A DNA stretch of 64,000 nt, from assembly GCA_036172245.1 (NCBI GenBank), contig JAYWIR010000050.1:186001-250000 (forward strand). Reading direction: 5' to 3'. Shown in pieces: positions 1 to 46,600 of this stretch. Within the stretch, counting starts at the first letter, position 1. Each line of letters opens with the position of its first letter. Origin of the DNA: Raillietiella orientalis. Taxonomy: Eukaryota. The notes beneath the pieces are model-generated. The model had not been told where the DNA came from and ran no database searches. It saw only the letters and a list, made by a program, of their open reading frames with translations. A program made the position numbers and the translations under genes.

Positions 1-1560
1 AAAGTAGAGACGGCGATCGGCTCGTTCCGAGGCGGCAGGTTTTTCCTGCCTGAACGGGCCGCGGTTTGGAACACGTTCGCGGCTCCTCTCCTCCGCCCCC
101 TGCTTTTTGTTTGCCCCCCCACAGAGAGAATTAAAAAGCGGACAAAGGATCTCCTCCGTATCGCCCTTTGGGGCAACGGGAGGGCCCGAGTCCGCTTAAA
201 GGACTTGTGCGCTCCTCGTCGGGATGGTGGTCTGGGCCTCCTGACGCTGGAGCGGCTGGAGCATCAGCTCCAGTTCCGCTTGTCGGCACTCGTTCCAGAG
301 TTGTGGTGCACCTGTTGGTGCGTCCCTGCACGTCTCCTTCCCCAGCAAGCCACCGGCAAGACGGGACTGACGTCGTTTCTTGCACTCCGTCGCCGCGTCA
401 ACCGATGCGGACTCCAGCTACGGAGGGTGGCTGCGCTGTATCGGAAAATCCCAGGATTGCTCACCTGACGCCCGTTTAACGGTAGTGCCTGGTTGCAGGA
501 AACCGTTCGCACGTGGGGACAGTTCGGCATGCAACGCTACCAACAGGAACGACGGTTCCTGTTTGGGGGTTACAGAAGCTGCACGCTCCTAGAGATCCTG
601 GAGGATCCGAAGAAGAGAGCATGGTCAGGAAGAACCCCTGTCGCTGCTGCACTGGCCTCCCTAGTAAAAGATCAGGACAGCGATGTTTCGGCGGAGTGGG
701 AGGTTAACATGATAATCTCCGGAAAGGAGAAGAAGCAGGGAGAGTGGAAGACGGGCCAGTTAAGAGACGCTGCGACCCCGAGTACGCCTCCCAATGGACT
801 TCTGCTCTGGGGCGCGCTGCTCGATGTTCCCATTGAACATTTGAAGTGGCCCCCTGTGCTCATGAACACTTCCACCCTCTCCTTAAAATGGCAAGAGTCG
901 GCATTCCTGTTGCAGCACTGGGGACTCCCCTGCAACGCCCGCCGACACCACTGGACCTGGGGAGCGGTCGATCCGAACTCTGTTAGGTGTGGGGAACGGG
1001 AGTCCCTCCCCCACCTCCTAGTGGATTGTGTTGCCTTTCGGCACCTTTGGCTCCGCTCTGCCGCGGCCATGGGCATCCCCTGCGGTAACCCCAGGAACGC
1101 ATTAAAAGCCCTCTTCGTTGCCGAAGCACTTCGGCCAGCGGCCTCGATAGCGGCCTTGTGCTGCCTTCGCGGGATCGTCGCCGCATGGAACACGGCTACG
1201 GGAGGATCACGCGATAAGGGTGCCATCCTGCATGACCCAATATTTTTGAGGAGGGCGTAGGGGTGGCCCCACCTGGATGCAGGATTTCAGAAAGAGCTTG
1301 CCGGCATTCTGCGAAGGATGCAACGGTCCCAGTAGCAACAGTGATCCCTTCCCTTACCCTCCTACCTTTTCTTTTTTTTTTATTTAATTTTTTTGTTTTT
1401 GCCCCTTCCCCCTGCTGCCGTGGTGGACCGTACCTGTCTGCGAACCGGTGACCTAGCAGGTTCTGTGTTTTTTCATGCGTGGTGGCTGAACTGGTCCAGC
1501 CACAGCACGTCTTTGTTAAAGTTTATTTTTTTTAATTAAGGAGCCTGCAAAATCCGGTTG
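1..1560 (+). mobile_element. Decayed L1/Tx1-clade LINE, 3' part of ORF2 (post-RT, CCHC zinc knuckle) plus T-rich 3' UTR
   Basis: LCAPRRDGGLGLLTLE motif (205+) and HWGLPCNARRHHW...CGERESLPHLLVDC (zf-RVT-like), broken by frameshifts. Degenerate family terminus ...ccggttg at ~1560. Confidence 0.85.
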
Positions 1561-1562
1561 AA

Positions 1563-4344
1563 AATGGAACCCGTTTTGTAGATCGTGCGCGACCGCCAAG
1601 GCACCCGGCGCTTCCTCAGGCCGAATGCAGCGACGCCTAGCCCTGGCAGCCGCAGATGCGGTTGCCTGGCTGTCGTGCGCCACGCGTCGCTGCATTTCGA
1701 ACCACGTGAGCGCGAAGAACAGCTTCGCTTCAATGGACCGTCCGGGTACAGCGTAGGACTGTTCCGGCCTCACCACTGATGCCGCGCTCCTGCCTAGGCG
1801 CTCGACCCACCGCCTGGAGAACAACTTGACGTCCGAATTCACGAAGGTGAATGGACGCCAATTGCTTAATTGGTGCATGTCTCCGCCTTTCGGCAAGAGA
1901 CGCACCCTTGCTGAGCGGAACGAGGCCGGGACATTGCCCGTCTCTCGCATCAGCGAAGAAAGTCTCAGCACCGGGGGGATGAGTTCTTCCGCGAAGCACT
2001 GGAAGAACTCCGCAGGCGGGCCATTTTCACCAAGCTCCTTTCGCCTGTTTAGGCCCGCTATGACGGAAGACACTTCTTCCACCGTAAAGGGCACATCCAA
2101 TGTGGCTCGTTCCTCCTCGTCGACGGCGGAGACATCCGCCGGCTAACTTAGCTCAGAGATACTGCGTTCCATCGGCTCCCTTGCATACAACGAGTAGTAA
2201 TAGCGCTTTCGGACGCGGTGAACTTCGGAAGTGCCGCGCCCTGAGCCCCTGCGGTCGCAGTCCATTTGCGTATATCTTTCTATTGCGTCGACCAGGAACT
2301 CTTTCTGTAGCTCCTGTAACGCATGGGATGTCCAAGCGTCTTCCTGGCTTACGGCAGCTCCTGCTGGCGCTTCGAGCTAATTATCGTTACTTTCAGAGGC
2401 TAGCACATGTACGACGTGCCGTTTTATCTCGACATATGGCAGAGTGACAGCCTAAGCTCCCTACTCTTCAGCACTTATTTCGAATTGATGCTGAGGGTGT
2501 ACAGGGAGACTCTGGAGCACCTGCAGCGCGATTGTCCCGGCGCGCCGGCCGTGTCGTCGTATGCTGATCATCTGCTCCTGCTGCCCATGTCCGGAGTTTC
2601 CGCAGTCGAAAAATTTTTCGTCCTGCTGAGCCGCGGGACAGGACTCCGGGTGATCAGGGAGAACTCGTCGGTGATAGCGGTTGGAGCAATGTAAGCAGGA
2701 CCACCTGACTGGATCCACTTGGGGGTCCCCACGAACAGGTACTTAAAGTACCTTGACATTCCATTGGGGACTTTTATCCGTCAGAAGTTCTGGTTAGGTC
2801 GCCTCCAGAAAGTCGATTTGGCGATTGGCCCGTTCCTGGAAGCAAGTTCCACTTTCCAAAACGAGCCGCGGTGTGGAACTCGTTCGTGGCCTCCCGCCTC
2901 GTTCCCTGCTTTTTGTTTGCCCCATACTTCGTAAGTTGAAAAATAGGTTCAAGAACTTCCTGCGCATCGCCCTGTGGGGCAGCGGAAGGCCCGGTGCGCC
3001 TCTGTAGGGCTGTGCGCTTCGCGTCGGGATGGCAGTCTCGGCCTCCTGACGCTGGAGCGAATGGAAATACAGCTGAGATGGCGAGCCATGGTCATCGCAG
3101 CAAAGTACTGGTGCATCCATTGGTGCGCTCCCGACCACTTCCCTTGCCAGCCGTGTATCCGGAGCAGGAGGGCTCTCATCTCATCTTCTGTGACCCGGCC
3201 GGAAGATAAGATGCGGCCTTCTCCTCGGACGCATGATTTTCTTGGCCAAGGAGAACGGCTGGATGGTCTGCTGCCCCATCAACTCCAGCGCATGGCTGAA
3301 AAAACCGTTGGCACGTGGGCAAAGCTCAACCAGTTCCGAGATGAACCCTGGAACTGCCTGCGAACTGGCATCTACGCCCTCTGCTCGCTGCGGAAGATGC
3401 TCAAGTGTCGAGCCAGGAGCACGTGGCTGGAGATGACCCCACCTACCATGGCGCAGTCCTCTTTGAGGAGAGAGCTTGGCAGCAGCCGAACGCTGAGGTG
3501 GCAAGTCTACTTCGGAATAGCAGGCAGCAAAAAGATATTAAGTGGTTGGACCATGAGGGAGTTGGCCGAGGTCACTACACCGAACGTCCTTTTGCTGAGA
3601 TTGCAGAGATGGGGCGAGCTTCTGGGCATCCCGTCCGATGACCTAAAGTGATCCTCGGTGTTGAAACACTCATCTACTCTCCCCATCAAGTGGCAAGAGT
3701 GTTGCACTGTGTTATCCCCTGCAACTCGCGCCGCCACCACTGGACGCTGGGGGAGGTGAGACAGAACTGTGCAGTTTGCTTGCAAAAGGAATCCGTCCCC
3801 CACCTGTTAGTGGACTGCGCTGCCCTCCGGCCCTTGTGGGAACGTTTTGCTACGACCCTCCGGATGCCGGTCGGCAGTACCCCCAGAGACGTTGTATGCC
3901 TCCTCTTCGTGCGAGACGCCCTGCCACCAGCCTCAACCCTGGCAGCGCTCTGCTGCCTCCGAGGGATTGTGGCTGCGTGGAGCGCAGCCAACAGAGAAAG
4001 CAGCGATAGCAAAGCACCCCATCGTACACGCGGGTCGCTACCTGAGGATCTCGATTGGATGGTCCCATCTGGGAGCTATGCAGAGGAACCTCGAGGGCAT
4101 CCTGTAAAGGATGGACCTTCCCTTTAGCAGACCGTGATCCCTTCTTGGACCTCCAAAGTGTTTCGTTTTTGTTTTCTGTTTATTTTTTTCTCGGTTTTTC
4201 CCCCATCCCCCTCCGCTGCCGAGGAGAGTCGCGCCGGTCTGCGTACCAGCAACCCGGTAGGTCCCGTAATGCATTAGCCGTAATGTGGCCTGGTACCACG
4301 AATATACAGTTGAGGTTTATGAAACGCTCTGGAATGACCGGGTC
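1563..4344 (+). mobile_element. L1/Tx1-clade LINE copy with inverted 5' segment (1563-~2275 antisense RT N-terminus; ~2275-4344 sense RT to 3' end)
   Basis: Minus strand reads FTVEEV...GENGPPAEFF...LLPKGGD...NWRPFTFVNSDVKLF...EQSYAVPGRSI up to the AFD-equivalent (GFH). Plus strand resumes at F(Y)CVDQELF, then QSDSLSSLLF, SYADH (YADD), LCASRRDGSLGL, CAVCLQKESVPHLLVDC. Terminus ctctgg-aatga-ccgggt. Confidence 0.85.
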
Positions 4345-4829: not shown

Positions 4830-7800
4830 TCAAAGGCGGTTGTAGAATGTGATGGTCCTCTTTGCCCAGTCGAACTCCGTTGGGTACTTGGCGGTAACGA
4901 TGTCTCCCAGGATGAACTCGTTCTTCAGACCAAGAGTGCTCTTCAGATACGAGTAGCACAGGTTCCTCGCTTGGAACTGCGGCGGGGGGTCACTCCGGAG
5001 TTCTAAGCGGAGGCCGACTCACCTTCGCAATATAGTCGTCCGAGTCGAACTCGAGAGCGGATTTCCCAATGGTGATGCTCAGCTTGCCTTCTGGGAGGGA
5101 CGCGCAAGACACCTGTTCGGAGCACGGAGGGATGCGGGAGATGGAAGGGGATGACCCCGAGTACCTGGAGGAGTGACTCTGCGTAGACACCTTGATTCTG
5201 CACGCTGCTTCTGTATTTGTTAAAGACATCCTGGGGCACGAGAATCCCTCTGACCGACGGATTGACCAGGACGGTGCACTCTCGATCGCATAGGGTGAGG
5301 TCGCCAATGGTGATGCTGGAACGGAAGGGAGGAAGCGTTCGGGGACTCCCGCTGCCCAAGGCCGGTAGGGAAAAGCTCACTTATTGGACTTCAGCCTCCA
5401 CTCCTTCTTCTTCGGCTTTGGGGACAGGGTGGCCGTCACCACCACCGGGCCTTTCTTCGCTGGGGTGCCCCCGAGCATCAAGGTCCCCGAGAAGCACTCC
5501 ATCCCCGCAGATCTGCAAAGCAGACACGGGTCAGGAACGCCTCGCAGGCGTCGTCAATATCTCGGAGCCTTTCATGGTCCCTGCCGCTCTCTTATCCGCA
5601 CGGAAGGGGGGGGAAGGGGCGGACGTGAGCGTGCTGCCGCGATGGCAGACACCAGCGAAGAGCGGAAAGGCAACTTCGGGATTTCGCGCTCCTCCCACTA
5701 CGCGCTCGGAGGCTTCGAACAGGGTGGGGGGCGCCGGAGGCGGCGCGTGCATGCTCCCCTTTCCCTCCCTGCCCTTTGTCGGGGCGGAACCAGCGACTTG
5801 GCTGACACCGCCGGTCCCAAGTTGACCTTTTAACCAGCGCGTGCAGTGACTCAAAGGTTCCACGGGAAGGGCAGAAAGAACGTGGCGCTTCCGATCACTA
5901 AGATCAGCGTCGGCGGACGTAGCACCAGGCATTCCATTTCCAGCGGGGGAAAGAGTCGACGCCGAGGACCGAGGGATGCGTCTTCTGATTGGGGTTCTCC
6001 ACCCCCCTGCCTTACAAAAGGACTCTGGTTGGCCCGTTCGGATGTTGCTCTAGTGGCAGCCGGAAACCTCCGATGTCCCCTCTAAATTACCGAGGTCAAG
6101 ACTCAGGGTCCCCGCGACGGCGAGGGGAGAGGAGGTAACGCTTACGCCCTGACAACGGCGACTACTAGGATCAGAGTTGAGGGCACCGTAACTCCGAGAA
6201 GCTCGGGTTCGAATTCTACCCGGGGGGAACGAGGATGGATGCCACGAGCGTGAGGGAGCCAGATGATCCCTTCCTCCCCCAGAGCCCGTCCTGGATTCCT
6301 AGTATGGCCCCTCCGTGGTGATTGAAGAATCATGAGCGCCCTAGGGTCGTATGGGTGGTGCTGAAGGGCTTGATGACCCCTCCTCCTTCTTTTTTCCCCC
6401 GAGGGGAGGAGGACGATTCCCCAGCTCTCCTTGGGAACCAAACGGAAAAAATGAAAGAAGCATAAAAGGAGGACTTCCAGAAGGACTAGCTCCTTCAGCT
6501 CCGCTGTGCTGGAAAGCCGGCAGCGGTCTATGGGGCCGGGAGCGTCGCCGGGCGACGCACGGAGCTGTCGATCCGCCTCCCGAGGAACTGACGGCTCACA
6601 TGCTCGCGTCGCCGGGGTTCCGTCCATCGAGCGCCCCCGGCGGCGGCCTCGTGAGCTCGCGCCTGACCGTACCTCTCCATCTCCACGAAGAACTTCCTCT
6701 GGGTGATCTTCTTCTGGACGATGAGGTTACCCAGTAAGGATTTGCTCTTCGGGTCTTTCGTGACTTCGTCTGGGGCCAGTCCGATCATGCCGTAGGGGGA
6801 CTTGACATCATAGAACGGAAGATCCACCTCGTTGGCTACCCCGAACACCTGCTTCGCGAGGTTGATGCTCCCCACCTGGAAGGAGAGAGAGAATGGAACC
6901 ACCGACTGCTTTCGACAGCCCTTTTCCCCCTCCTCCTCGCGGTCCGGGGTCGCAGGCGAGGACTCCCGGCGGGACAACCACCTCGAGGTACGTTTCTCTT
7001 CCGCGACAGCATCCGCTCCAGGGGCCCCACGGACGGACGCTGTCTGAGCGGAGCGTCGAAGGGCGCGCCGTCCAGAGAGAGGTCGACCAGCTGGAGGCCG
7101 CTCATTCCCACAAGGCATCGACGTGACCTGCGGGAGTTCCCGGAAAGTGCAGTCGCACTCAGCTGTTTGCCCACGACCGCTTTCCTCGTAGAACGGCATT
7201 GGGAAAAGCGGTCATCAAGAAGCGAAGAGGCGTCGAGGATCGGAGCCCCGATAGGAGGCAGAGCTGCCCACAGGCGCTTTGGTCGCCCCGAAGAAAACGC
7301 AGTGGGCAAGCGTGGAACCGGATCTTCGGCTCGTCCTCTGGAAAGCCAACAGGCCGCCTCGTTGGGGGTCAGCTCTATCGGTGAAGAGAAGAGGACAGAA
7401 ATCCACCCGCGCATGGGGCGAACGAAGTGGACCTCCAGTGCCACAGGGTATCGTGGCCGAGACACCAGCCCGGCAGTACCTGAGAACCTCGGTCACTTTG
7501 GCGTCGGAAAAAGCCTTTCCGGAAATGTCCTTTGCTGCCTTTGCTGGCGTATGACGTCACGCTTGCCGGATCACCCGACCGTCCTTGTCGCGGCGCGCAC
7601 TCTCTCGCGGGAAACCCACGCACTCACGTTGATGTTGTCTCTGGCGAGAGTCCCCTTGGCATGACCCACGGCGGCCATGGACGTAAAGGGCTTCCTCATG
7701 TTGGAAAACGAGGTGGAATTTGCCGCTGCGTACCCTCTGTGCTTTTCTGAGGGAGAAAGTGAGGCGGGTTGCTTCAGGAGGCGTCCCTCCCTACCTTTTC

Positions 7801-9878
7801 TGAGGTCTCTTGAGAGCGTGAATTGCGCTCCTGGTAGCCAGATTGCGTTGTCCATGGTGTTGATGACAAGATTAAACTGCACCTTCCTGCTGCCGAAGGT
7901 GCTCTTTACGTAGCGCAGCTGAAAGAAAAGGGAAGAAGAGGTGGAGGGAAGCGGAGGGAAAAAATGGCACGTTCCGGGACGTACGTCTCCAAGCAACCGC
8001 AAGTTTTGCTTCCTCCCTCCCCTCCTGCGCTACTGCCGAAAGCGAGCCTACGGCGGCAACGTCCGCATGAGCAAGAGACGTGGACACACCGCGCTGTTCG
8101 CGCTCTTCTCGCGTGGAGCGACTCCGTCGGCGAACCGAGCGCTCCGCAGCAGTGCAAGCGCCCAAAGTCTCGCCTTTCTGCACCCTCGGTCCTCTCTTCG
8201 ACGGCCTAGTCTCCTCTTCCAGGAACCCTCTCCATCCGGGATCCGAAGAGTCTCCCGTCTACCTTCCGATCATCTCAGCGGAGACAAAGTGGCAGCCCGA
8301 TTTCCGGACGTTTCCGAAGCATTTCCACTCATAACCAGTGCCTTCGAGCGACCCCTCCAGTGGATGTGTTCAAGTCCATGCAACGGTGGTTGCACTCGCC
8401 CGTTATCTTCGCACTTCCTCCATCCCCCCTCTCCCCTTTTAGCTGCGCGGTTCCCCTTTGCCCCACACGCGCGCGCGCATACGGAAGGACGACGGCATGG
8501 CGGTGGGAGATAGGCCAGATCGCAAGCAGCACCAGGAGGACCGACTCACCGGTCAGATCTCGCAGTCGTCCCGGGTAGACATGGTTCCCGGAAAAGGCAG
8601 CGCACAACGACGACGCTCTGGCGAGCGCAATTCGCGCGCACCCGCGCTCGCAACAAGGGAGGAAGCGCGACCGAACAGGGGAGGGACTCGGCCACTCATG
8701 CTGCAATCGTGCTGCCCTCCGGTGATGGAGACTCGAGTGTGCCGACTGCTGCTCCACGCGCGGAGAACGATCGGTGGCGCTAAGCAGAGCACCACGTTCG
8801 CGCCCCGATCGCCGGAGCAGTCCTCCACGGCTGCCTTTGCGAAACGCACTGGCGATACAATGCTCGGAATAGCCTCTAGCGAGAAAGGAGTGCCATCTAC
8901 TCGGCGACTTACTTATTATCGAGGAGGGAGACTAGATGGCAGCACCGAGTAGGCTCGAAGTGTGCTTGCGACTTGCATGCATCGTGAAAAAAAAGTTGCG
9001 CCTAGGAGCACAGAGGATAAGCATCTCCTTTTTTGACACCGCTTTTCCTTCTCTCTGCCGTGGTCTCCCGATGACAAGTAGGCTTGCTTCTCCGCGGCCA
9101 CGCCCGTTAGCAGCCCATTTGAGATGCCGTCCGTCTCTGGCTGTTGTAAAGACGCAGCGAGCGTCCCGGTGCGATCGATTGCGAAGGGCAGAGAATTCGA
9201 CCCGATCTATGCGGAATCCTCCCGGCAATAAAGAGGGAAAGCGGAAGTTTGGCGATGCTCCATCCAAGCAGTGCAGCAGCGGTGGCTGAAGAGTCGGGAA
9301 CCTCTTTCTCTTCAGTTCAGCGAGCGCTTTCTCGTTCGTTCAGTGTTGGCGCGCGCGCGTTCCGTGGGCGTTCAATCCACCCATGGTGCCCGGTGAAACG
9401 CAGGAAGGGGCGACTCCCGCCTGGAGAGAGAGATGCGGCGCTGAGCGCCATCTCGAAGGATGCTCATCTAGGTGCCCTCGGTCGCCACGCGCTTGTGGTC
9501 TGGCACAGCTCCAGCAGCTACGCGTGTCTCCGCGGTTCGACGCGTGCGGAACCGGGCGCCCTCGTCGGAGGGAACAGAACAGGGTGCGAGGAGGGAGCAA
9601 TACTCACCGAGCCATCGCACATCAGCTGTACGGTGATTCCTGGCTTCTGTGCTGCCGGCTTTACTGGCTTTACTGGCTTTACTGGCTTTACTGGCTTTAC
9701 TGGCTTTACTGGCTTTACTGGCTTTGCTGGACCCTTTGGCTTCTGACCCGGCTTCTGCCTTTGCCTTAATTCAGTCTGCTCCAGATCAGGAGCTTGCTCC
9801 ATGAGCATCTCCATTTCCGCCAAGCTGATTCCATCAAGCCCGTGGTGTTCATCCGCAGTGTCCACTTTGGAAACGCTG
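4830..9878 (-). CDS. Pepsin-family (A1) aspartic protease homolog, catalytically inactive; spliced, 5' exon(s) unresolved
   Basis: Phase-compatible GT-AG exons 9878-9608, 7918-7795, 7746-7628, 6875-6673, ~6298-6146 (least certain), 5315-5165, 5112-5023, 4976-4830. Colinear pepsin motifs: YVKSTFGSRKVQFNLVINTMDNAIWLP, HRGYAAANSTSF, QVFGVA..YGMIGLA, ITIGDLTLCDRECTVLVNPS, FDSDDYIAK, FILGDIVTAKYPTEFD. Confidence 0.85.
9657..9730 (-). repeat. 9-bp tandem repeat (GGCTTTACT)x~8 encoding (KPV)7 in the pepsin-like prosegment exon
   Basis: Directly visible; translates as AKPVKPVKPVKPVKPVKPVKPVKPA in frame with the exon ending at the GTGAGT donor (9607). Confidence 0.95.
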
Positions 9879-12329: not shown

Positions 12330-12555
12330 TCTCTCTCCCTCCTCCTCGTGGACAGAACCGCCCGCAAAGCGGCGGGACATTCCTTCGGGCAACCTCCTTC
12401 TCCTGCTTCTCCTTTCTTCCGTCTTCTTCTCCCTTCCTTTTCCTCCTCTACCCTTCCTCTTCCTCTTCCACCCTTCTGTTTCCTCCTCCACCCTTCCTTT
12501 CCCTCTTCCTCCTCCTCCTCTCTTTCTCCTTCTCCCTTTTTTTTTCCTCCCACGT
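12330..12555. repeat. Polypyrimidine (CCT/CTT-rich) low-complexity tract
   Basis: Directly visible; bracketed by the ~20-bp direct repeat cgcaaagc(g/a)gcgggacattc at 12363 and 12567. Confidence 0.8.
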
Positions 12556-14882: not shown

Positions 14883-17800
14883 CACCCGTTCGTCCCGGGA
14901 GGTGCATCTTAAACAAAAACACACACAAAAAAAAAAACAAGGATGGCAGTTTCTTGGGATTCGTGGCTAAAAGAAATGGAAGCAAAAAAAGTCAACTGGA
15001 GAGGGCACTCCCACTGGCAGGAAAAAGAAAAAATGGTCTGCAGCATTGGGAGGGAGGGGAAATGCACCAATAAATAATGGGTAGGCGGGAATGGGGACAC
15101 AGGCCTTGTTACGTTCCTTTGAAATTAACCATGCGATGCTGATGATCTCCCTACTGACTTAGAGCTTTGGAAAAGACCGCCTGCTCAAGACCTGCAGACC
15201 ACTTTCCTCAAGACAGCTACAGCAATGCTCAGCCTCTCGTTGCCGCTGGCGCAGCTCCAACGAGTAGCGGGCCGCGAGGATGCCGCGAACGCAATGCAAA
15301 GCCCCGATCGGGGCGGCAGATGAGCGCCCCTCTCCCGTGAAGAAGCAGCGCGGCAGATCGAGAGGCGCATCTTGCGGGTGGAGAAGAGCCGAAGCCAGGC
15401 TCTTCCACGGAGGTCGGATGACGCCGCAGTTCATCAGTAGATAGGGGAGCGATTCGATCTCCTCGCATCCGGAGCCGCGCTCCGCAGAAGCACTCCCTCT
15501 AGTCACGTGATGCATGCGATCGCTGCAGTGAAAACCCATGCAAGAACAGCACCACGTCGTGTTGCCACCGGAGAGGGAGCACAGCGGTGTTCAAAACCAG
15601 AGGGAGCACACTCGCAGTTTCGACCCACCGGCGAAGTCCTTCACCAGGCGTCGCCGCATGGGCCAGCGCTTTCGTGGAACATCCGCCTAGGAGTTTTCCC
15701 ACTCCCCCTATGCCGCAAGAAAACTCCCACCCTGCCGGTAGGCAACTGTCCACTGCTCTCTCTTAGGGAAGGCAGCGCTGCGGAGAATCAACGAGCCCAC
15801 TTGGTGGGCTCGTCGACGGTTCTCTGTAGCGGCAGCCTGCCGGACCGCTGAACCGACATCTTCCGGGCTACTGCTGGTAAGCCGAGCCCAAGTATCCGCA
15901 GATTCCTGCTGCCAGTTATTCAAGTTCACATGGAGGCAGGAGATCCACTCCTTGGATTCCAGCAGGAAGGCGATCTACCTCAGGGGAGACTTCAATTGCT
16001 CCATACATTCCCGGTTGCGAAAAAGCGGGGACGCTAGTCCCTCGCAACCGGATGCTTGCCGCAAAATGTGGCGAGCGGGGAGACACCACTGCTGGTTTCG
16101 TGCCCTCTCCATCCATCAGGGCGAGTCTCCGAAAGTGTAGCTACAGCTCCAGCCTTTTCATGGTAGGGATGCCGAGTCCGGCGCAGCATCTCTCTGAGGC
16201 GGACGCGGGGTCGCAAAGCACTCCGAAAAACCTTCCTTAACAGTTCGTCGGCCCGTTGTCCCACTCAGAGGGAGGAAAACAATCAAAAAGGGGCAAAAAG
16301 GAGTGGTCGGAGGAGGGGAGCTCGTTGGGCCAGGAGGCGTGCTGGAACGCACCAGGGCGTGTCCCACAATTCTGCCGCAAGGGCGAGAGTCCTAAATCTA
16401 CTTTGCCGTTTCATGCTCTCCAGCGTAAGTAGGCCAAGTCCACCGTCCTTACGTGGAGCGCACAAGTCTTTGAGACGCAAACGGGACCTCCCTTTGCCCC
16501 AAAGGACTGTCCTGAGGAGATCCACTGCTCGTTTTCATACAAAGTGAGGGGCGGGGCACACAAAAAGTAAGGGGCGAAGAAGGGGGCGGCAAACACGTTT
16601 TACACCGCGGCCCATTCCTGCAAGTGAAACTTGACTTCGTGGAACGGACCGATAGCCAACGATGCCTTTTGGAGACGGTCGGACCAGGCTACTTGAAGGT
16701 ACTTGAAGCACCTGCTCGTGGAGATCCCCAAGCGGATCCAGTCCGACCGCCCAGCCCACGCCGAACCGACAAAGACCATGGACGACTTCGCCCTGTTCAC
16801 CTCCAGGCCTGTCTCGCGGCGCAGCAACTCGAAGAAGTCCTCGAGCGCACTCGCCGAGGTGGACCCAGGAAGCAGCAGCAGAAGATCGTCTGCATAGGCC
16901 GACACGGCAGGCGTGCCGGCACACAAGCTCGGCAGGGTTGCCAGAGTTTCCCTGTATGCTCTCAGCACCAACTCGGAGTAGATGCTGAAGAGCAAGGGGC
17001 TCAGGGTGTCACCCTGCCGGATGCCGCGGCGCATTGGCACGCCGTACACGTGCCGGCCGCTGAAACAAATGTTGATTAACGCGAAGCGCCAGCAGGAGCT
17101 CAGGTGGGACTGGAGCACCGCCTGGAAGCCTATGCGTTCCAGGAGCTTTAGACGTCTCCAGCTTTCGTCGTTTCTCTGGGCGCGCGACTGCAGACAAGCA
17201 CATTGCGGCTTTCACCTGCGTCACGTGGCCGTTGTGGTTCGGGAGAACGCCTGGATCTCCTGCCTCCCAGGGAACCACTCTGCAAGATTGCACGAGTCAG
17301 TCTCCACGTGGGAAAAGATCCACGTTCCGGCGGGCACGAAGAACACTTGCCTGAAAAGGCACGCCCGCTGGACGCTGCAGGAGATCTTACAGTCCCACGA
17401 TCAGCTTCTGTGGGCCCTCATTACCCTCCTTGCCCCAGTGCTGCCCTCCTTCAAAACGCCAGGGACAGCAGCGAGCAGGGGAAATGGAAAGTGTTCTGCA
17501 CCCTTGACGGCAGGACGTGGTGGACATCTCGGCAGCTAGCGGATGCTGCGACGACGAGTGTCCCGCCCAACGGAATTCGACGCTGAGGCGAGCTACTCGG
17601 AATATCTCTGGAGGAGATGAAGTGGCCCCCAGCGTCCTGGAACAGTGGCTCCCTCCCCCTGAAATGGCAGGAGGTGACGTTGCTCATGTTACATTGGGGT
17701 TTACCCTTCAAAGCACGCCTCTCTCACTGCAAACGGGGGCTGTGGATTCCCAGTACGATCGGTGAGGGGAAAAAGAGACATTCCCACACCTCCTTGTTGA

Positions 17801-18870
17801 CTGCAGAACCCTCCGCCCTCTGTGGGATCGTCTTGTGGCGATTCTGGACATTCGCGGAGGTGCCCCTAAGGACATTTTCAGGCGCCTCTTCTCTCGCGAC
17901 GCCTTGTCCCAGCCCGCCTGTGTAGCAGTTTTCTGTTGCATGCGAGGCATCGTGGCGGCATGGAACGCGACTAGAAGACGTCAGAACATTAATAGTGCCT
18001 TACATTGGACTCGCATTTTTGTGCGAAACATCTCCAGGTGGCGCCACTTGGGTGCACAAAGGACGCAGCTTGTGAGGATCCTGAACAGGATCTAGAGGAC
18101 CTCTCCGCGCGCCCTGTGATCCCTGCCCTGCCCTCCCATCCCCAAAACATTAGTGCCCTCCCCACTTTTGAACTTTTTGTTTGTTTTGTTTCTTTGTCCC
18201 GACCCCCGCGCATGGGAAGGACCTCGCCGGTTCCGCACCGGCAAGAAACAAGCTGCCTTGTTGTGGTGAACTTTTAGGTTCGGCACGCGAAAATTCATGT
18301 ATTTTCATTCTTAAAATAAATGCCTCGGTATATCCGGGTGTAAACGAGGAGGGGAGCTACAAAAGGGTTCCAGATCGAGGCCCGCTCCGGCAGGTAGAAC
18401 AGGCCTTTCGGCAACGGGCCAAGAGCATTCTTGGCTTTCTGAAGGCAGCCGGAATACGATTTTGCACCGCAGAAGTCGACCAATGGTACGCCAAGATGCT
18501 AGAAGTTTCTTCTTGTAGGGATCCCCAGGCGGATCCAGTCAGGCTGCTTCTCCAGCGACGCTTAGACCGGAGAGATCGTGGACTTTGTCCTGTTGACGCG
18601 CAAGCTTGCTCCTCAGTGCATCAGCTCGAAGAACTCCTCGAGCTTCTCCACCAGTATGGACCTGGGCAACAAGAGAAACGGTTCTTCAGCGTAGGCTGTC
18701 AAGGGGGCACGTGCAAGTACCCACTCGGCGCCAACCCTAAGTAGGCGCTGAATAAAACGTGAAGCAGACCGTCACCTTGGATAGTTCCTTGGCGAACCTA
18801 CACGCCCTGAACGTGGCGACCTCCGAAACTGATGTTGATTAGCGCGTCGCGAGCCATAGCAAGTGCGAGT
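14883..18870 (-). mobile_element. Older L1/Tx1-clade copy (RT to 3' end), interrupted at 16323-18345 by a nested copy
   Basis: Minus strand QGDGLLHVLFSAY (~18780) and ERASIWNPFVAPLL (18346+) continue as RPLLFAPF (<16310), then IESLPYLLMNC and a T-rich UTR. Terminus cccg-ggacgaa-cgggtg at 14883. Confidence 0.8.
16323..18345 (+). mobile_element. Nested 5'-inverted L1/Tx1-clade insertion with 13-bp target-site duplication
   Basis: 16323-~17150 is antisense RT (GIRQGDTLSPLLF, AYADD, LCAPRKDGGLGL ... PARLLAQR). ~17150-18340 is the sense continuation (LSSFLWAR...). TSD GAGGAGGGGAGCT at 16310-16322 and 18346-18358. Confidence 0.9.
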
Positions 18871-18949
18871 ACTGCAGCAAGCAGAATGGGAGTTCAGAGC
18901 GCTACAGGAGTTCCAGAAGGTGCTCCTGGCTCATGCAGTCGAATTCTTC

Positions 18950-21462
18950 GGGGTCCGAGTCCGCTTGAAGGACTTGTGCGCTCCGCGTCGGGACGGCGGT
19001 CTTGGCCTACTGACGCTGGAGCTGCTGGAGCTTCAGCTCCAGTTCCGGATGTTGGCACTTGTGCCGGAGTTGTGGTGCACCTGCTGATGCGTCCTTGCAC
19101 GTCTCCTCGTCAAGCAAGCCACCGGCAAGACGGGACTCACGTCCTTTCTTGCACTCCATCGCCGCCGAATCAACCGATGTGGGCTCCAGCTGCGGAGGGT
19201 GGCTGCCTTGGTTCAGAAAAATCAAGGATGGATCACCTGTCGCCCCTCGAACGGTAGTGCCTGGTTGCAGGAAACCGTTCGCACGTGGGGACAGTTCGGC
19301 ATGCAACGCTCCAAACAGGAACGACGGTTCCTGTTTAGGGGTTACAGAAGTTGCACGCTCCGAGAGATCCTGAAGGATCCGAAGAAGCGAGCGTGGTCAG
19401 GAAGAACCCCTGTCGCTGCTGCACTGGCCTCCCTAGTAAAAGATCAGGACAGCGATGTTTCGGCGAAGTGGCAGGTTAACATGATAATCTCCGGAAAGGA
19501 GAAGAAGCAGGGAGAGTGGAAGACGGGCCAGTTAAGAGACGCTGCGACCCCGAGTACGCCTCCCAATGGACTTCTGCGCTGGGGCGCGCTGCTCAATGTT
19601 CCCATTGAACATTTGAAGTGGCTCCCTTTGCTCAGGAACACTTCCACCCTCCCCTTGAAATGGCAGGAGTCGGCTCTCCTGTTGCAGCACTGGGGACTCC
19701 CCTGCAACGCCCGTCGACACCACTGGACCAGGGGAGCTCTCACCCGGTCACGCCGGAACGTTTATTGATAAACACTTTACATTTGCGGTACTAGGCCCCG
19801 CTACGGCCAATAGTTCATGGGACCTGCCAGGAAGCCGGTTCGCAGACCAGCTTGACTCTCCTCGGCAGCGGAGGGGATAGGTGGTAAAACAAAAAGAAAA
19901 ATAAATGAGACAAACAAAAAAAAAGAAACTATGTGGAGGACCGGGAAGGGATCACAGTTCGCTGGTGGAAGAGACCATTCTTTCCAGGATGCCTTCGAGG
20001 TCCCTCCCAGATGGGCCAGCCGATCGCGATTCTCAGGTAGCGACCCGCGTGTACGATGGGGTCCCTATCGCTGCTTCCTCTGTTGGCTGCGCTCCAGGCG
20101 GCCACAATCCCTCGGAAGCAGCAGAGCGCTGCCAGGGCTGAGGCTGGTGGCAGGGCGTCTTGCACGAAGAGGAGTCTCACAACGTCTCTGGGGGTACTGC
20201 CGACCGGCATTCGGTGGGTCGTAGCAAAACGTTCCCGCAAGGGTCGGAGGGCAGCGCAGTCCACTAACAGGTGGGGGAGGGACTCCTTCTCCCTACACAC
20301 TGCACAGTTCTGTCCCACGTTCCATAACGTCCAGTGGTGGCGGCGCGCGTTGCAGGGAAGACCCCAGTGCAACAACAGCAGCGCCGTTTCCTGCCACTTG
20401 AGGAAGAGGGTGGATGCGTCTCTAAATAACGGAAGCACTTTAGGTCATCCAGCGGGATGCCAAGCAGCTCGCCCCATCTCTGGATTCTTCGCGGGAGAAC
20501 GCTCGGGGTAGTGGCGTCTGCCAGCTCTCCCATGGTCCAGCCGCTGATCAAATTCTCTCTGCCTGAGATTCGGCAGGAGACTTGCCACCTCGACTTACGG
20601 CTGTTCTGAAGAGCCCTTCTCAGGAAGGGCATCGCTGTAGCAAGGGGGGTCGTCTCCACCCACGTGCTTCTGGCGGGACACTCGATCATGTTGCGCAGCG
20701 TGCAGCGGGTGTAGATGCCGGGACGCAGGCGGTTGCAGGATTCTCCACTAGGCTGGTTTAACTTCGCCCACGTGCCAACTGTTTCTTCCAGCCATGCGCT
20801 GGAGTTGGCTGGGCTGCAGGCCATCCACCCGTTCTCCTTTGCCAGGGTGGCCATGCGTCCCAGGAGAAGGCCGTATCTTCTTATTTTCCGGCCGGGCCAC
20901 AGAAGAAAAGACGCGAGTCCTTCAGTCCCGGACACACGCCTGGCGAGGAAGCGGGCCGGAACGCGCCAAGGGGTGCTTCACATCTTCGCCGCGATGGCCA
21001 TGGTGCGCCATCGCAGCTGAATTCCCACGCGCTCCAGCGTCAGGAGGCTAAGACCTCTGTCCCAACGTGGAGCGCACAAATCCTCGCCGCTTGGAGCAAG
21101 ACAACGGGAGTACCTTACGATAAGGGGGCCATCCAGTGCGCCTCTGAATTCCTGGAGAGGGCGACGCTGTGGCCCCACCTGGATCCAGGCATGCAGAAAG
21201 AGCTTACGGGCATCCTGCGAAGGATGCAACGGCCCCAGCAGCAACAGTGATCCCTTCCCGCATCCTCCTACGTTTTGTTTGGTTTTTGTTTCGGTTTTTG
21301 TTTGTCCTCTCTTCGCCCTGCTGCCGTGGTGGACCGTACTGATCTGCGAACTGATGAACCGGCAGGCTCTCTGCTGTTTCTTTGAGTGTGGCTGGATCAC
21401 TGGTCCAGACACAGTACTTGAAAAAAGTTTATTTTTTAATAAATGCCCTGGCAACCAGGGTG
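18950..21462 (+). mobile_element. L1/Tx1-clade 3' fragment (18950-19740 and 21083-21462), split by an antisense copy
   Basis: 18950-19737 is near-identical by eye to ~182-965. 21083-21462 matches ~1177-1560 and ends AATAAATG-ccctgg-caa-ccaggg-TG. Confidence 0.85.
19741..21082 (-). mobile_element. 5'-truncated L1/Tx1-clade copy, close relative of ~2990-4344
   Basis: LCAPRWDRGLSLLTLE and HWGLPCNARRHHW..CAVCREKESLPHLLVDC. Terminus AATAAACG-ttccgg-cgtga-ccgggtg at 19741. Confidence 0.85.
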
Positions 21463-21465
21463 AAA

Positions 21466-22560
21466 ATCGAATGCTTCGGGCAATTCGACCGCAATCACGA
21501 GAGCACCAGGTTCCTCGGCATTTCTGCAAGTTCTGTTCCCTATGCCCTTCAGGGAAATCTTTCTTTGTGGGCCTCCGCTGCAACCCGCTGCTGCAGCCTC
21601 ACCCAGGTTTGTGAGAAGAGCAGTTTCCACTCCATACTACTGTCCGGAATAGCATTGGTCTGCTCCAAGCTGATAAAGAACTGTGCCTCCGATCCCAACA
21701 GTGCTGTCCACATTCTGGAGGGTCGCTTGATGTCCTGGTTTACCAGGGTTGTTGGACGATAGTTTCCCAGCTTGCGCAAATCTCCTCCTTTTGGCAGGAG
21801 ACGTACTCTGCACGAAAAGAGACTGGCATCTCGCCTCTCTCCCGAATCAGCACGGTGAGTTTCGGTATCAAGTAAATGATCTCTGATACTTAGATCTGGT
21901 GGAACTCCGTGGGCAGGCAGGCCGTCCTGGTACTTTCCTCTTCCTGAGTGCTCCGATGGAGGCGTTGACCTCCGCCATCTTGAACCGCTCTTCCAGGCGC
22001 GCTCGTTCCTTCTCCCCTATCGCGGTGTTGCACTTCTCCAGCGGTCTCTGAGAGGAAGCACTCTCCATTGGTGTCCTCGCGTACGGGAGGAGTAAAAGTC
22101 TCTCAGAAACCGGTGAACATCCGAAGATGCCGAGCATTCCTGGGAGAACTGAAGGCCGGAGGCGAGCGCCAGGTCCGAAGTGACTATCCTTCAGCAAGCC
22201 GAACAGCCTTCGAACGTCAGGATCTGTGGGGTGTGCGCGTTTGCCAAAAAAGTGCTGTTCTGCACTCCCTTCTGGAATCCGGATGGGAGGAGAACCAGTG
22301 GAAAGTGTTGGCAAAACTCTCGGACTGACACCTTAAGCAGGTCCCAATCCTCGAGCCTGCGAATGGTGGACCCACGGAGGAAGCCACGGAGAATTTCCAC
22401 AGCTTCCGGGCCGCTAATCGAATCCTCAGGCATCCTCAATACGTTGACGGGCAGCCCCTTCTCTGGAGGCTGCAGCTCTTCTCCGAGCACGGGACGGTCT
22501 GAGAGTACCGACGATTCCGGACGCTTCAGGATACCGGAATCCCGCGTAAGGAGCAAGGAG
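21466..22560 (-). mobile_element. L1/Tx1-clade ORF2 fragment (end of APE, linker, RT N-terminus)
   Basis: VLSDRPV (SDH.PV), WDLLKVSVREFC, LLPKGGDLRKLGNYRPTTLVNQDIK, EQTNAIP, VIAVELPEAFD. Confidence 0.8.
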
Positions 22561-22940
22561 CTGCTGCAAATGCAGCCTGCGGCGATGCGTCCCGTATGAA
22601 GAGGGGTCTCAATGAGTCTCTGGGGTTTCCACATGAGGTTCGTAGGGTCATGGCTGCAAAACGTTCTTACAGCAGCAGAGGGGCGACCCAGTACGGGAGC
22701 AGGGTCGCGTTCCCTACACCCGCTGCGATTCAGGTCCACTCCGAGTCTCGTGAAGTCCTGGCGCGTTGCATAGGAGTCCCACGTGCAGCAGAAGAAGTGC
22801 CGACTCCCCGTACAAAAGAGACAGGGCGTGTTGGTTCAGAAGCGGGTGTTTCAAAGGTTGAGCAGCCGCCGACGCCGCCAAACGGTCAGCCGCGGAAGCT
22901 GCACCCCGCTTAACGAAGCCTGCGGAACCGCGTGCTTTAT

Positions 22941-23600
22941 CACCCGGATATGTCGGGGCATTTATTATTATATTTTTTTACAAAATTACATAATAAAGTC
23001 TACATACAGTTTCTTTCGTGGTGGAACACTTGGTTCTACCACGCTTGAAGACTTGTCGTCACCCGGTACTAAGACCGGCGAAGTCCTCTCCTGAGGCTCA
23101 GGGGAAGGGAAAACTCAAACAAAAAGAAACAAAAAGAAGGATAACGGGGAGGGGAATAGTTTTATGAAGGAGGGGAGGGCAGGGAAGGGATCACTGGACT
23201 CCTGGGTTGGTCCTCTGCATCCTATCCAGGATGCTGACAAGTTCTGTTTTTATACTGCGTACTACGCACCACCTTGTCGCGGTCTCCAGAAAGACCGTCT
23301 TCCAGTGGATGGCGTCCCTGCTTCTTTGTCCTTTTCTTCTAGCGTCCCACTTCGCCAGGATGCCGCGAACACAGCAGAGGACTGCTAAAGACGCAGCAGG
23401 GCGAAGGCCGTCACGCAGAAAGAGGCGTCGATAAATGACCTTAGGGTCGCCTACTGGAAGAAGGAGGGTAGACGAAAGTCGATTCCAAAGTCCAACAGGA
23501 GCAACACGCTCTGTTAGAAGATGCAGGAAGGTTTCCCTTTCGCCGCACTCTATGCAACGGGCATCCACATTCCCCAGTGTCCAGTGAGACAGGCGTGCCG
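22941..23600 (-). mobile_element. L1/Tx1-clade 3' fragment
   Basis: CIECGERETFLHLLTE, LCCVRGILAKW. Terminus aataaatgccccg-acatatc-cgggtg at 22941. Confidence 0.8.
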
Positions 23601-23738
23601 CTATCCCAACACGCTGGGGGTCACTTCACCTCCGCGTGGTACAGCGTCACTGGAAAACAAATTTTCCGCTAGCGCGCGAGTCAATTCTGTTTCACCAGCG
23701 TGCCCTCCCGTGGCTACTCAGCCTCACAGGAGGTTTAT

Positions 23739-24930
23739 CACCCGGGTGAGCCGGGACGTCTATTATAAAAATTTTTACAAAGAAAAATTTCATAATAAAA
23801 TCTTTTTCTCGTCAATGTTTTTGTTTTTGTTTTGTTCAGTCAAAACACATGTCCAAACTGTCTTGGAGCACTTGTCCTTACCGGCCCGCAGGCCGGTAAG
23901 GTCCTCATCACTGGAGCGGGGGCGGGAAAAAAACAACAAAACAACAAAAAAAAAAACGCCTGGGGGGACAATGTTTTTTGGGGAGGGAAGGAGAGGGAGG
24001 GGATCACGGTACGCAGTGAGGAGGCCTCTGCATCCGGTTTCGGATGCGAACAAGTGCCGGCAAATGTTTTATAAGTCGGCGCCAACGGGAAGCCTTCTCC
24101 AACGAGATGGCTGCCCAGTGGATGGCATTTCGACTTCTTCGTCCTCTCCTGGTTGCGGTACACTTATCCAGGATTCCGCGTATGCAAAACAGAGCACTGC
24201 TACACACCCGGAGGCTGGCATGGCGTCCCGCATCAGGGGGCGCCTAAAAATGTTCTTGGGGTCGCCCCCCGGAATGTTCAGGATCGACGAGAGTCGATCC
24301 CATCTGGTGGAGGGTAACGCACTCTTTAATTAAGTGGAAGAAGGTCTCCCTTTCCCCGCACTCTGCACACTGGGCATCCACAATCCCTAAGGTCCAGTCC
24401 CCAATGGAGCAGAAGCAACGCCGTCTCCTGACACTGCAGGGGGAGGGTGCCGTTGTCCCAAGACGCTGGGGGCCACTCCACATCCTCTGGAGGCATGTCG
24501 AGCAGCTCGCCCCAGCGCACTAATTCCATTGGGTGGGACACTCGGGGTTGCAGCGTTCGCTAGTTCCCGGGACGTCCAAGCCTTTATAGGTTTTCTCCTG
24601 CCTCCGATGAGGCAGGACACTTCCCACGATGCCTCCTCTTGGCTGTCCCTTGCTTCTCTGAGGGAGGGCAGCACGGGGGCAAGGGGGGTGAAGGAAGCTC
24701 ACAGAAGTTTTCATGGGTTAAAAACGATCTCCTGCAGTGGCTGGCCAGCGTACCTGCCTCGACGGAGGTAGGAGAAGTCCACATCGCTGGAGCCGTTGAT
24801 TTTTGCCCACGCGGAAACAGACTCCTGGAGCCAGGTTGTCCATTTCGCGGGGATGCAGGAGATCCACGGGTTGTTTCTCACCAGGGCAACCAGGTCATGT
24901 AGCTGAAATCCACAATGGTTCAGTCTACGG
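23739..24930 (-). mobile_element. L1/Tx1-clade 3' fragment
   Basis: WLQESVSAWA, LLLLHWGL, CAECGERETFFHLIKEC. Terminus cccgg-ctcac-ccgggtg at 23739. Confidence 0.8.
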
Positions 24931-43647: not shown

Positions 43648-46600
43648 TTAATTCTGATTCTGACGCAATAATTTCACCAAGCAGACTTCTAAACGTGCTA
43701 AAGGTCCCCTTGAACCAGCTGGTGTTATCTGCTGAATGTTCGGAAAAAACTCATAACAAAGGGCATAGAGAAGTTTCTGATACTGCAGACCGTATGTCTG
43801 AAGCAAAAGAAAACTCAGAGAGTTCAACACTGGTAAAAGAAGTGTTGCCGTGACATTTGGTATTGGATCTGTGGACACGTGAGAGAGAACAAAGGAATCA
43901 ATAAACTCACCTGCATGAAGTACATTTGCTAACCAACGCCAACCTTCCACAATTCCCCACTCATGATGTCGGGCACCAAAAGTATTTACAATGACTCCAT
44001 ACAACCGAGCGATCCCAGTCATGCGTTTCAGATACTTATCTTCAGTTTCCCAGCCTTCCTTGCTGCGCACATAACCTTGGACACTGAAGTTAAACTGAAG
44101 GAACTGGTAAATTTACACATGCTTACCTCAACCAATCTTCTTCCGCCTGCTCTTCAGTTTTGTGCAAATGCAATGGAACAAGAAGAGGGCATCTCTTATA
44201 AAAATGGGCCTTTAAAAGCTGCCCAAAGTCAGGAAATGCTTCCCAAAGACCCACAATTACTGTGGCAAGAGGAACTGCAGCTTCTGGATGACTGCTAACT
44301 GTATCTTCTGCTTGGCTCTAACTTTATCCTGATATCATCATCTGCTTAACAGTTGCTCACCACCAATTTATCAGCCAACAAATTCTTGCAATACAGTACA
44401 CCTTCAGGATGCTCGGCTGCACATACTTTTTGTCCTCCAATAACAATTGCTTTTCCTCCAAGAAGTTGCTTGAGACGAGACAGCTTGTCTTGCAAATGGG
44501 ATGCTGATGTACTTGAAATGGTGTTGACCAAAGTATTGACTGCTTTCTTCAAAACGCAAACTGCTTTGAAAACTCCTTGATCATAACCTTACCTTTAAAG
44601 AAAAGCGATACTGTTTAAGACTAGCATTGCCATCTAGTCCATCCATCTGCACTGCCACTTGTTGCAAGAGCTCCATAAGCTGATCATAACATTCCTGACA
44701 TAAATCTTTTTCTGGTATATCTTTAATCTCTTCCTCTTGCAATGTTTCTACTGTCATATCACTTTCGAGAACAGGAGTTAATTCGAGCTCTTCTTTTTTC
44801 TTATCTGGATACAAAGCTTTCTTGATATTCAATAATGCATTCAGTGCCCTGAGGTAATGCATTCCATCACCTCAGAGAAATTCCATTACCTATGTCAGAC
44901 AAAATGCAGTGTGCTTGGTTTAGCAAACTTTCCGCTTGCTGAATTTTCTCCTCCGATGGATCCTTACATTCCAAAAGTTCTTGTGCAGCTTGCATCAGAT
45001 GCTGTATCATCAATCCAGATCCATGAACAGGCAGCATTCTGAAGATGACGTTAGTGAACACTAAGCCAAGCTACATACGTGATTAGGGCACTAATAGATT
45101 CCAAGCAATTGTGGATCTCTTTCACTAATGAAGCAAGTCGATCCTGAAGACGCTGCTGCTCTTGCTTTTTACGCCGCTGCTCTTCTTCCATCCTCCACAA
45201 CCTAGCAGTCACCATCTGCTACCACATTTACACACATTCCCTCATTTTCAAGTTCTCACCTGAGCATGCTGCTTGTTGGCTTTTTTCTGTTGGTCATATC
45301 TATATTCTTCTTCTTGTTGCAAAAGAATCTCTGTTTGTCTCTGATGATTGCTGTCCTGATTATGCTGGTAATCCCAATAACGATGCATAAGATGCTGAGA
45401 TATAAGTAATTCAGCTTCAGCCATTGCTCCATGATGGCGCCTCATGGCACTCTGTTAACCACTTGATAAGATGAGCAATATTATTCCTCCTTACTTGTAT
45501 ACATCTCTCTTCTTCTTTCTGATACAGCTGCAGCTTCCTACCTACGTCATTTAGAAGGGGAACTTCAGAAATGGAAAAAGAGTTTATCCTAGGCTATATA
45601 CTAACAGTACAATAACTGAATTAAAAGCTGCACATACTTGTTCTCGAATTGGAGTAGTATCTACAGGAGTTGCTGGTACAGCTGCACAGTCCTGCTGCTT
45701 AACATGGTTGAGTAATTGATGCCTATGCAGAGAAGTACTTGCTTGCGTAGGAGATGCTAAACTTAGAAGCATCAGCTAAAAAAACGAAAGACCAAGAGTA
45801 TTTTAATAATTTTTTTCTGGAAAGCATGATGGACTTTAAACTGGATGATGTAAGCATTCCATTCCTAGAAATCCCAAAGGGCAAGATATGAAACAATTAT
45901 CCCATAAAATCATACAAAACACCCTTCAGTAAGAAACAGTACTCAGAAATTAAAGATAGTATATTGACAACAGAAATCAGCAGTACAACTGCTGATTCTG
46001 GATGTAATTAAGCACAGAGTCTGGTACCAAGTACCGAACACTTTCATGTCGCTTCAAGGCTCTACGCACTTTTGTAGAGCTTATGTCATTCTCGATCCAT
46101 TCCCGGACAATATGAATGTTGGCTTTATAATGATTCAGCAGATCAGACTCGTAAATCACTTGACTGACCGACTTTCCCTTTCTGCTCACTACCACCACAC
46201 CATAATCTCTTAGAATGCTCTCCATGTGTTCCTTTTTCCAGAGATTAGGCACCTCAAATGATGACAAGACATCAGCACCACACAACAACTTTAATTGGCA
46301 ATTAGATTGCTGTTCATCATAGTGTTGCTGGTGATGTTTAAGAACCTCGTAAGTTGGAGTCCACTCCTGCTGTTCACATTCCCACTTGGATAGCTGAACC
46401 CATGGGTGTGATTGCAAAGCAGTCTCTACCATTTTCAATCTATGAACTCCTGATTCCAAGGTTGTCTTGCCATACTTATCATTAACTGGTGACATAATGC
46501 CACCAACAACTTGTTCATTTGTGGATGACATAAAATAATCTTTGGCTAATTCAAACAATCTTAGATGCATTATTGTTGGAGGATTATAAGAACCACATGC

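Follow-up and report, generated by a model that had tools for sequence, protein, structure and literature searches.

Here, we present an analysis of a minus-strand gene in a 64,000-nucleotide (nt) stretch of the Raillietiella orientalis genome (assembly GCA_036172245.1, contig JAYWIR010000050.1, positions 186,001 to 250,000; hereafter the window), a gene that an earlier note had described as a pseudoenzyme of the pepsin fold. We found that eight exons between 9878 and 4830 join into a single open frame, that the translation resembles the pepsin family (MEROPS A1, PF00026) in both lobes, and that asparagine stands at both positions where a catalytic aspartate is expected. Together with a predicted start exon at 10878-10814, the pepsin-like locus is probably a structurally intact nine-exon gene. 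With a probability of roughly 60%, we suggest that it is an animal gene for a 433-amino-acid (aa) secreted, probably N-glycosylated, basic, and inactive pepsin-fold protein that would function as a non-cleaving binder.

Based on the junctions read from the sequence, exons 1 to 8 have canonical GT-AG borders throughout. In exon 1 (9878-9608), an acidic stretch of net charge −7 is followed by a Lys/Pro-rich tract of net charge +12, after which the pepsin-like domain begins. Exon 2 (7918-7795) encodes the N-lobe active-site strand with NTM (7861-7853) in place of the expected D-T/S-G; it is followed by intron 2 (7794-7747), which is 48 nt long, in frame, and devoid of stops, and retention of this intron would lengthen the protein by 16 residues, placed after the first active-site strand. 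Exon 3 (7746-7628) contains the flap region (7684-7652) and the N-x-S/T sequon NST, exon 4 (6875-6673) the end of the N-lobe with the psi-loop motif GMIGLA, and exon 5 (5512-5381) an inter-lobe segment with GTLMLGG. The C-lobe active-site strand is encoded by exon 6 (5315-5165), in which CDREC is followed by NPS (5263-5255) where D-T/S-G is expected and which has a second sequon, NIT. Exon 7 (5112-5023) is open and in phase and contributes C-lobe sequence with Cys358; exon 8 (4976-4830) encodes the C-terminal strands with Cys392 and ILGD and ends with the stop at 4832-4830. We number the exons from 0 to 8; in a nine-exon count, the NTM exon is exon 3 and the NPS exon is exon 7. After splicing, exons 1 to 8 form one frame of 411 codons that ends with TGA and has no internal stops, and the other two frames of the joined exons contain 9 and 19 stops. 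Coding periodicity is clear, with a GC content of 0.52, 0.40, and 0.71 at the first, second, and third codon positions versus ∼0.62 in the introns. Four introns are short (46-65 nt), and the other four are 752-1689 nt. The proposal of eight phase-consistent exons with a stop-free frame, which originated with the earlier note, is borne out by these data.

Only one frame of exon 1 is open, and this frame has no in-frame ATG before the upstream TGA; therefore, an upstream exon is required. A signal-peptide exon had been described as missing, and exon 1 indeed has no usable ATG, but a candidate is present. When all ATG..GT candidates of phase 2 within 4.1 kb upstream were ranked by hydrophobicity, the stretch at 10878-10814 (minus strand) ranked first. 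This putative exon 0 begins with ATG, encodes a signal-peptide-like start with a hydrophobic core and, ahead of a likely cleavage site, small residues, and ends in phase 2 at the strong donor GAG/GTAAGA. With exon 0 added, the nine exons comprise 1302 nt and are open from ATG to TGA over 433 aa, whereas reading these 433 codons out of frame meets 9 and 19 stops. We predict that exon 0 is the start exon and that the protein would be secreted by means of this signal-peptide-like start.

An additional exon at ∼6298-6146, joined to the donor at 6673, had also been suggested. We rejected this exon and assign it to intron 4; a splice from the donor at 6673 to the acceptor at 5512 is in phase (phase 2), and exon 5 itself provides the GTLMLGG segment expected after the 6673 donor. 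The best local score of exon 5 against intron 4 in any frame is 30, at the level of 200 shuffled introns (mean 31, 95th percentile 39), and the 6298-6146 stretch was not recovered by tblastn of the gene model against the window. Moreover, in a profile alignment (hhalign), 51 additional residues would not fit at the junction of exons 4 and 5. Since the gene model does not include 6298-6146, the concern that this exon might carry an obligatory frameshift, which would have marked the locus as a pseudogene, falls away.

Kinship with the A1 family was analyzed using unspliced pieces, i.e., single exons and, for exons 2 and 3, a 97-aa piece that reads through the in-frame intron 2 (7918-7628). Against Pfam, the piece from exons 2 and 3 matches positions 7-78 of PF00026 with 15.1 bits (positions 7-82 and 17.3 bits for the stop-to-stop open reading frame [ORF]), exon 4 matches positions 81-144 with 13.7 bits (positions 79-148 and 15.2 bits for the stop-to-stop ORF), and exon 8 matches positions 273-312 with 11.5 bits. 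For each of these pieces, PF00026 is the sole family matched, and the matches are colinear with the profile; by simple addition, the three pieces score ∼40 bits. Each individual score is below the family cut-off of 19.9 bits. Even so, that three independent pieces match one and the same family among 24,736, in the right order, is far beyond chance. The PF00026 comparison that the earlier note had called for, which we ran on the pieces, is in this respect favorable as to family and order but not as to the individual scores. Exons 5 to 7, with 125 residues, span the 128 PF00026 positions left unmatched between exons 4 and 8, and two lobes are present in one chain, colinear with PF00026. In exon 1, the Pfam search returned only low-complexity noise.

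Consistently, in the PDB, the piece from exons 2 and 3 matches candidapepsin-1 (E 0.0089), and exon 8 matches the C-terminus of the cockroach allergen Bla g 2 (E 0.01, residues 285-325 of 330) as well as the C-termini of several plasmepsins. Among language-model look-alikes in the Atlas, exons 2 and 3 find Asp clusters with a score of 0.95 (175 shared features), and exon 6 finds Asp and TAXi_C clusters with a score of 0.94 (179 shared features). To align the protein over its full length, bacterial profiles were built from PF00026 matches above the cut-off in 46 of 401 genomes of one order (19 ORFs from 20 loci). When residues 102-433 were aligned globally with hhalign to the nine bacterial homologues most similar to pepsin, the score was 12.1, which none of 100 shuffles reached (mean 3.2, standard deviation 2.0, maximum 10.9), and exons 5 and 7 were colinear with the bacterial sequences. 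Altogether, these matches, taken piece by piece, exceed chance and support that the encoded protein belongs to the A1 pepsin family, in agreement with the two-lobed pepsin fold proposed in the earlier note.

The translation contains the segments LVINTMD, LVNPSV, and TSMAAVGHAKG, on which the claim of a lost active site was originally based. At the first site, N-T-M stands in place of D-T/S-G; Asn132 is aligned with the catalytic Asp of candidapepsin-1 and also with the first Asp column of the bacterial profile, both in the hidden Markov model (HMM) alignment and in the hhalign alignment. At the second site, N-P-S stands in place of D-T/S-G, and Asn323 falls under the second bacterial Asp column in a weak global alignment; the spacing of Asn323 from GTLMLGG and CDREC fits the second catalytic site. 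Thus, as previously proposed, Asn lies under both Asp columns. Beyond the aspartates, nearly all positions of the canonical D-T/S-G-S/T-S are altered in the two motifs, which read NTMDN and NPSVR; changes of this extent take many nucleotide steps, and still the frame is open. The flap tyrosine, which is Tyr75 in pepsin numbering, is also gone, in agreement with the earlier reading of TSMAAVGHAKG; Ala178 (7675-7673) lies under the flap Tyr of candidapepsin-1 in a region of low alignment confidence, and residues 160-193 contain no Tyr at all. Because both catalytic Asp are replaced by Asn, the protein is probably unable to perform aspartic proteolysis.

Elements of the scaffold are retained. The hydrophobic-hydrophobic-Gly motifs of the psi-loops are present, with GMIGL at the DGgIgl column of the bacterial profile and FILGD at the matching strand of Bla g 2. 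A C-x3-C motif (CDREC) directly precedes the second site, and Cys358 and Cys392 are kept; we take these cysteines to be those of the pepsin C-lobe disulphides. The pepsin-like domain is basic, with a net charge of +16 over 332 residues. The two sequons, NST in exon 3 and NIT in exon 6, suggest that a secreted product would probably be N-glycosylated. We speculate that the protein is a non-cleaving binder in which the remnant of the substrate cleft would grip a peptide or another ligand.

A cationic KPV repeat ahead of the domain, reported previously, is present at 9657-9730 (minus strand), where Tandem Repeats Finder identified 8.2 copies of a 9-nt unit with 98% match; the near-perfect identity of the units at the DNA level suggests recent slippage. 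The Lys/Pro tract to which the repeat belongs, at most a putative prosegment, is ∼39 residues long and lies between the acidic N-terminal stretch and the pepsin-like domain, and it may serve as an extended cationic tether or linker ahead of the domain. The exon lengths are presumably close to those of vertebrate pepsinogen-type genes, with exon 1 being ∼117 nt longer, a difference that we take to be the Lys/Pro tract.

Several observations weigh against the reading as an inactive but functional pepsin-fold protein. Regarding the kinship, each PF00026 piece remains under the cut-off, exons 5, 6, and 7 analyzed singly have no Pfam match, and exons 5 and 7 singly have no PDB match. Against the PDB, exon 4 found only a designed repeat protein and exon 6 only a tyrosine aminotransferase (E 1.4), with no A1 protein in either case. 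An HMM of all 19 bacterial pepsin homologues gave the spliced model −0.4 bits, and 8 of 200 shuffles scored higher; an HMM of 9 of them gave 2.3 bits, and 1 of 200 shuffles scored higher. Regarding the setting, the gene lies among decayed retroelements, its GC content at third codon positions (GC3) is 0.71 versus 0.33-0.41 in neighboring housekeeping genes, and its four long introns of 752-1689 nt compare with about 35-60 nt in those genes. Finally, neither an orthologue nor a paralogue was found in the protein searches, the metagenome scans, or the window, and an open frame may be compatible with recent death of the gene, no more than a few per cent of divergence ago.

The lack of relatives extends over several searches. 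In a word-based search with exon 4 against longer proteins, there were 16 candidates, none of which scored, and an exhaustive search of 1.84 billion representatives with the same exon gave a single match, a repeat protein without an Asp domain. With the 97-aa piece from exons 2 and 3, a word-based search gave 832 candidates and none at E ≤ 10. Two metagenome scans gave 210 and 393 pattern matches and no confirmed relatives. Within the window, no second A1-like fragment was detected, the best off-gene tblastn match having an E value of 0.069. However, the missing relatives tell little because the host lineage is unsampled in the libraries searched; even for the neighboring NMNAT gene, full-length matches reach only ∼50% identity.

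The most serious competitor is that the locus is the relic of a recently inactivated or never-expressed A1 paralogue, the frame of which is open by chance after selection has gone. We consider this explanation unlikely, although it deserves the most weight among the alternatives. It would fit the position of the gene within a decayed repeat block, the long GC-rich introns that are unlike those of neighboring genes, and the lack of an orthologue in the searches made. Stops are rare in DNA of such high GC content, with 85 in 4528 codons of the long introns (1.9% per codon). Based on a simulation of frame survival with substitutions only (5000 runs per divergence level), the frame remains open in 45%, 14%, 2.4%, and 0.16% of the runs at 2%, 5%, 10%, and 20% divergence, respectively, and in none of the 5000 runs at 40% divergence; accordingly, neutral drift over a short time would in many cases not interrupt the frame. 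Indels would push these figures lower. What speaks against a relic is that none of the 16 splice dinucleotides is lost, that the frame, the ATG, and the position of the stop are preserved as well, and that the motifs have been rewritten while the scaffold and the C-lobe cysteines persist. Because the motifs are rewritten at most positions and the scaffold is kept, the frame appears to have been retained for long after the loss of catalysis. Likewise, the extent of change in the motifs, the intact frame, the simulation, and the divergence of the flanking repeat copies (72-91% alike) argue that there was no long drift and that the frame was kept while the catalytic site was rewritten. From this we infer that the gene may be maintained by selection. 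The designation as a pseudoenzyme in the earlier note therefore stands with respect to the Asn at both sites and the retained scaffold, while its claim of selective maintenance is one that we would make conditionally.

An alternative of a different kind is that the GC-rich block around the gene is foreign or mobilized DNA, i.e., the passenger of a large element, which would be compatible with a working gene as well as with a relic. A GC-rich block of 28 kb, flanked on either side by decayed repeats, contains the gene. The gene has a GC content of 54%, a GC3 of 0.71, and an observed-to-expected ratio of CpG (CpG o/e) of 0.72, and its introns have a GC content of ∼62% and a CpG o/e of ∼1 (0.72-1.1 overall), whereas the neighboring NMNAT, NOP58, and GLE1 genes have a GC content of 38-43%, a GC3 of 0.33-0.41, and a CpG o/e of 0.30-0.57. 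Inverted repeat copies at ∼3.0-4.3 kb and 19.8-21.1 kb (75-90% complementary), including the pair 3700-4009 and 20065-20374 (90%), flank the segment with the gene; this bracketing may be a coincidence. Against a foreign origin, four of the introns are 46-65 nt and resident-like, GC-rich and AT-rich blocks alternate repeatedly in the window, as fits ordinary repeat islands, and the arrangement of nine exons with the motifs in exons 3 and 7 is that of animal A1 genes (PMC11431107). Moreover, no transposase or integrase domain was found among the 210 flank ORFs scanned in the GC-rich block, which gave one decayed reverse-transcriptase fragment and no other credible family. We regard a foreign origin as rather improbable. 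Even less probable, by a shade, is the more elaborate reading of a lineage-restricted double-Asn binder that would use its Lys/Pro tether in surface adhesion or as an antimicrobial and would be a mobilized or acquired passenger in the inverted-repeat-bracketed, CpG-undepleted, GC-rich block.

It is also conceivable, although very improbable, that the protein is a hydrolase with a non-canonical active site or one that is activated by deamidation of Asn. A precedent is the Plasmodium histo-aspartic protease, which is active despite changes in the first motif (PMC11431107). In the protein described here, however, both carboxylates are gone, the residues that follow are changed as well (NTMDN and NPSVR), and the flap Tyr is absent. 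Lastly, an artefact in which chance open frames in GC-rich DNA were stitched together hardly merits consideration, even though spurious long ORFs are common (95 of at least 150 aa in the window, with 78 of the 82 scanned outside the gene region matching no family), because several independent pieces indicate the same family, correctly ordered and spaced, the global profile alignment scores above 100 of 100 shuffles, and each of the eight introns has canonical splice sites.

The pepsin-like gene is set in a window of mixed composition. GC-rich blocks (54-64% GC; CpG o/e ∼1 for the introns measured) extend over 1-28 kb, 38-42 kb, 50-58 kb, and from ∼63.4 kb onward, and AT-rich gene blocks over 42-50 kb and 58-63.4 kb (37-46% GC; CpG o/e 0.30-0.57 for three genes); this mosaic looks like CpG-depleted gene bodies among undepleted repeat islands, the genes in the AT-rich blocks having short introns. 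The decay of the surrounding transposons, which the earlier note had pointed out, is seen in an RVT_1 fragment of a decayed reverse transcriptase of the non-long-terminal-repeat type at 16603-17211 (minus strand, 45.8 bits) and in scattered repeat copies at 135-4310 and 16418-27267 that are 72-91% alike, among them the pair 388-687 and 19160-19459 (91%). ORFs within the introns of the gene match no family besides the Asp exons. Upstream of the gene, a CT-rich tandem repeat is present at 12431-12535 (period 20/40 nt, 81-87% match). No Rfam families were found in the window.

Other genes recognized in the window show that it is animal DNA. A single-exon NMNAT gene lies at 45980-46669 (minus strand; CTP_transf_like, 69 bits); among its 844 matches, identity is 44-50% over at least ∼91% of the query, in molluscs, arthropods, and vertebrates alike, and higher identities (58-59%) span less than half of the query only. 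An ORF for the C-terminal part of GLE1 is present at 43651-44112 (minus strand, 69 bits), and a gene of the NOP5/NOP58 type at 60260-62070 (minus strand; NOP5NT, 89.5 bits; Nop, 172 and 62.6 bits), which has GT-AG introns of ∼34-60 nt and encodes a poly-Lys tail. At 62880-63385 (minus strand), a C3HC4 RING-finger gene is split into two ORFs, each of which matches half of the RING profile with ∼17-18 bits; by eye only, it resembles Polycomb-group RING-finger proteins. As a separate observation from the search for bacterial homologues, in which 46 of 401 genomes drawn evenly from the order of Escherichia had PF00026 matches above the cut-off, pepsin homologues seem by no means uncommon in that order; they are mostly open frames of 380-600 aa with two D-T/S-G motifs.

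If expressed, the gene would be an invertebrate addition to the small set of non-catalytic pepsin-fold proteins. It would be an unusually clean case, with both carboxylates changed to amides, the flap Tyr lost, and a novel cationic repeat gained, and it could possibly be used for asking how the A1 cleft behaves when it only binds. It opens no long-standing question, the class being known from the pregnancy-associated glycoproteins (PAGs) and Bla g 2.

Among known systems, the shewasin-type bacterial pepsin homologues share a colinear global alignment in which their Asp columns lie over both Asn; in contrast, both D-T/S-G motifs are kept in 19 of the 20 bacterial loci, and the bacterial HMMs do not score the spliced model above shuffles. 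Plant xylanase inhibitors of the TAXI type are a plant family of non-proteolytic pepsin-fold binders. Clusters of TAXi_N and TAXi_C are among the Atlas look-alikes of the gene (0.89-0.90); however, these matches are weaker than the Asp rows, and no piece has a Pfam TAXi match. With candidapepsins, plasmepsins, and the pepsin/cathepsin D type, the protein shares colinear N-lobe and C-lobe matches and the psi-loop motifs. It also has two cysteine features at positions found in active pepsins, namely the C-x3-C ahead of the second site and the Cys pair of the C-lobe. The protein differs from active pepsins in that it has no D-T/S-G at either site, no flap Tyr, and, as read from the translation, no first N-lobe disulphide, and in the net charge of +16 of its domain.

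Bla g 2 is the best PDB match of exon 8, with which it has NLCYS and the I/LGD strand in common; overall identity is low, however, and a match at E 0.01 is confined to the last exon. Bla g 2 keeps both Asp in altered triads, binds zinc, and is not known to have a Lys/Pro repeat. In the protein described here, by contrast, both Asp are Asn. Inactive A1 homologues are an established class, to which Bla g 2 belongs as an aspartic protease described as inactive (PMC9541408). Like the protein described here, Bla g 2 is an invertebrate protein with likeness to the A1 fold, and secretion, a feature of Bla g 2, is predicted here.

The PAGs form active and inactive subfamilies that are distinguished by substitutions in the two active-site domains, and in PAG genes, eight GT-AG introns separate nine exons, the first motif lying in exon 3 and the second half-site in about exon 7 (PMC11431107). 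PAGs are a mammalian placental expansion close to pepsin, whereas the gene described here is of the invertebrate type, from an unsampled lineage, and far more diverged (∼40 bits in total against PF00026), and it is set apart by the double Asn and the KPV insertion. Nevertheless, it shares with the PAGs the nine exons and the motifs in exons 3 and 7, and this match in layout favors an origin from an animal A1 gene and lends support to the predicted exon 0 as well as to the junction from 6673 to 5512.

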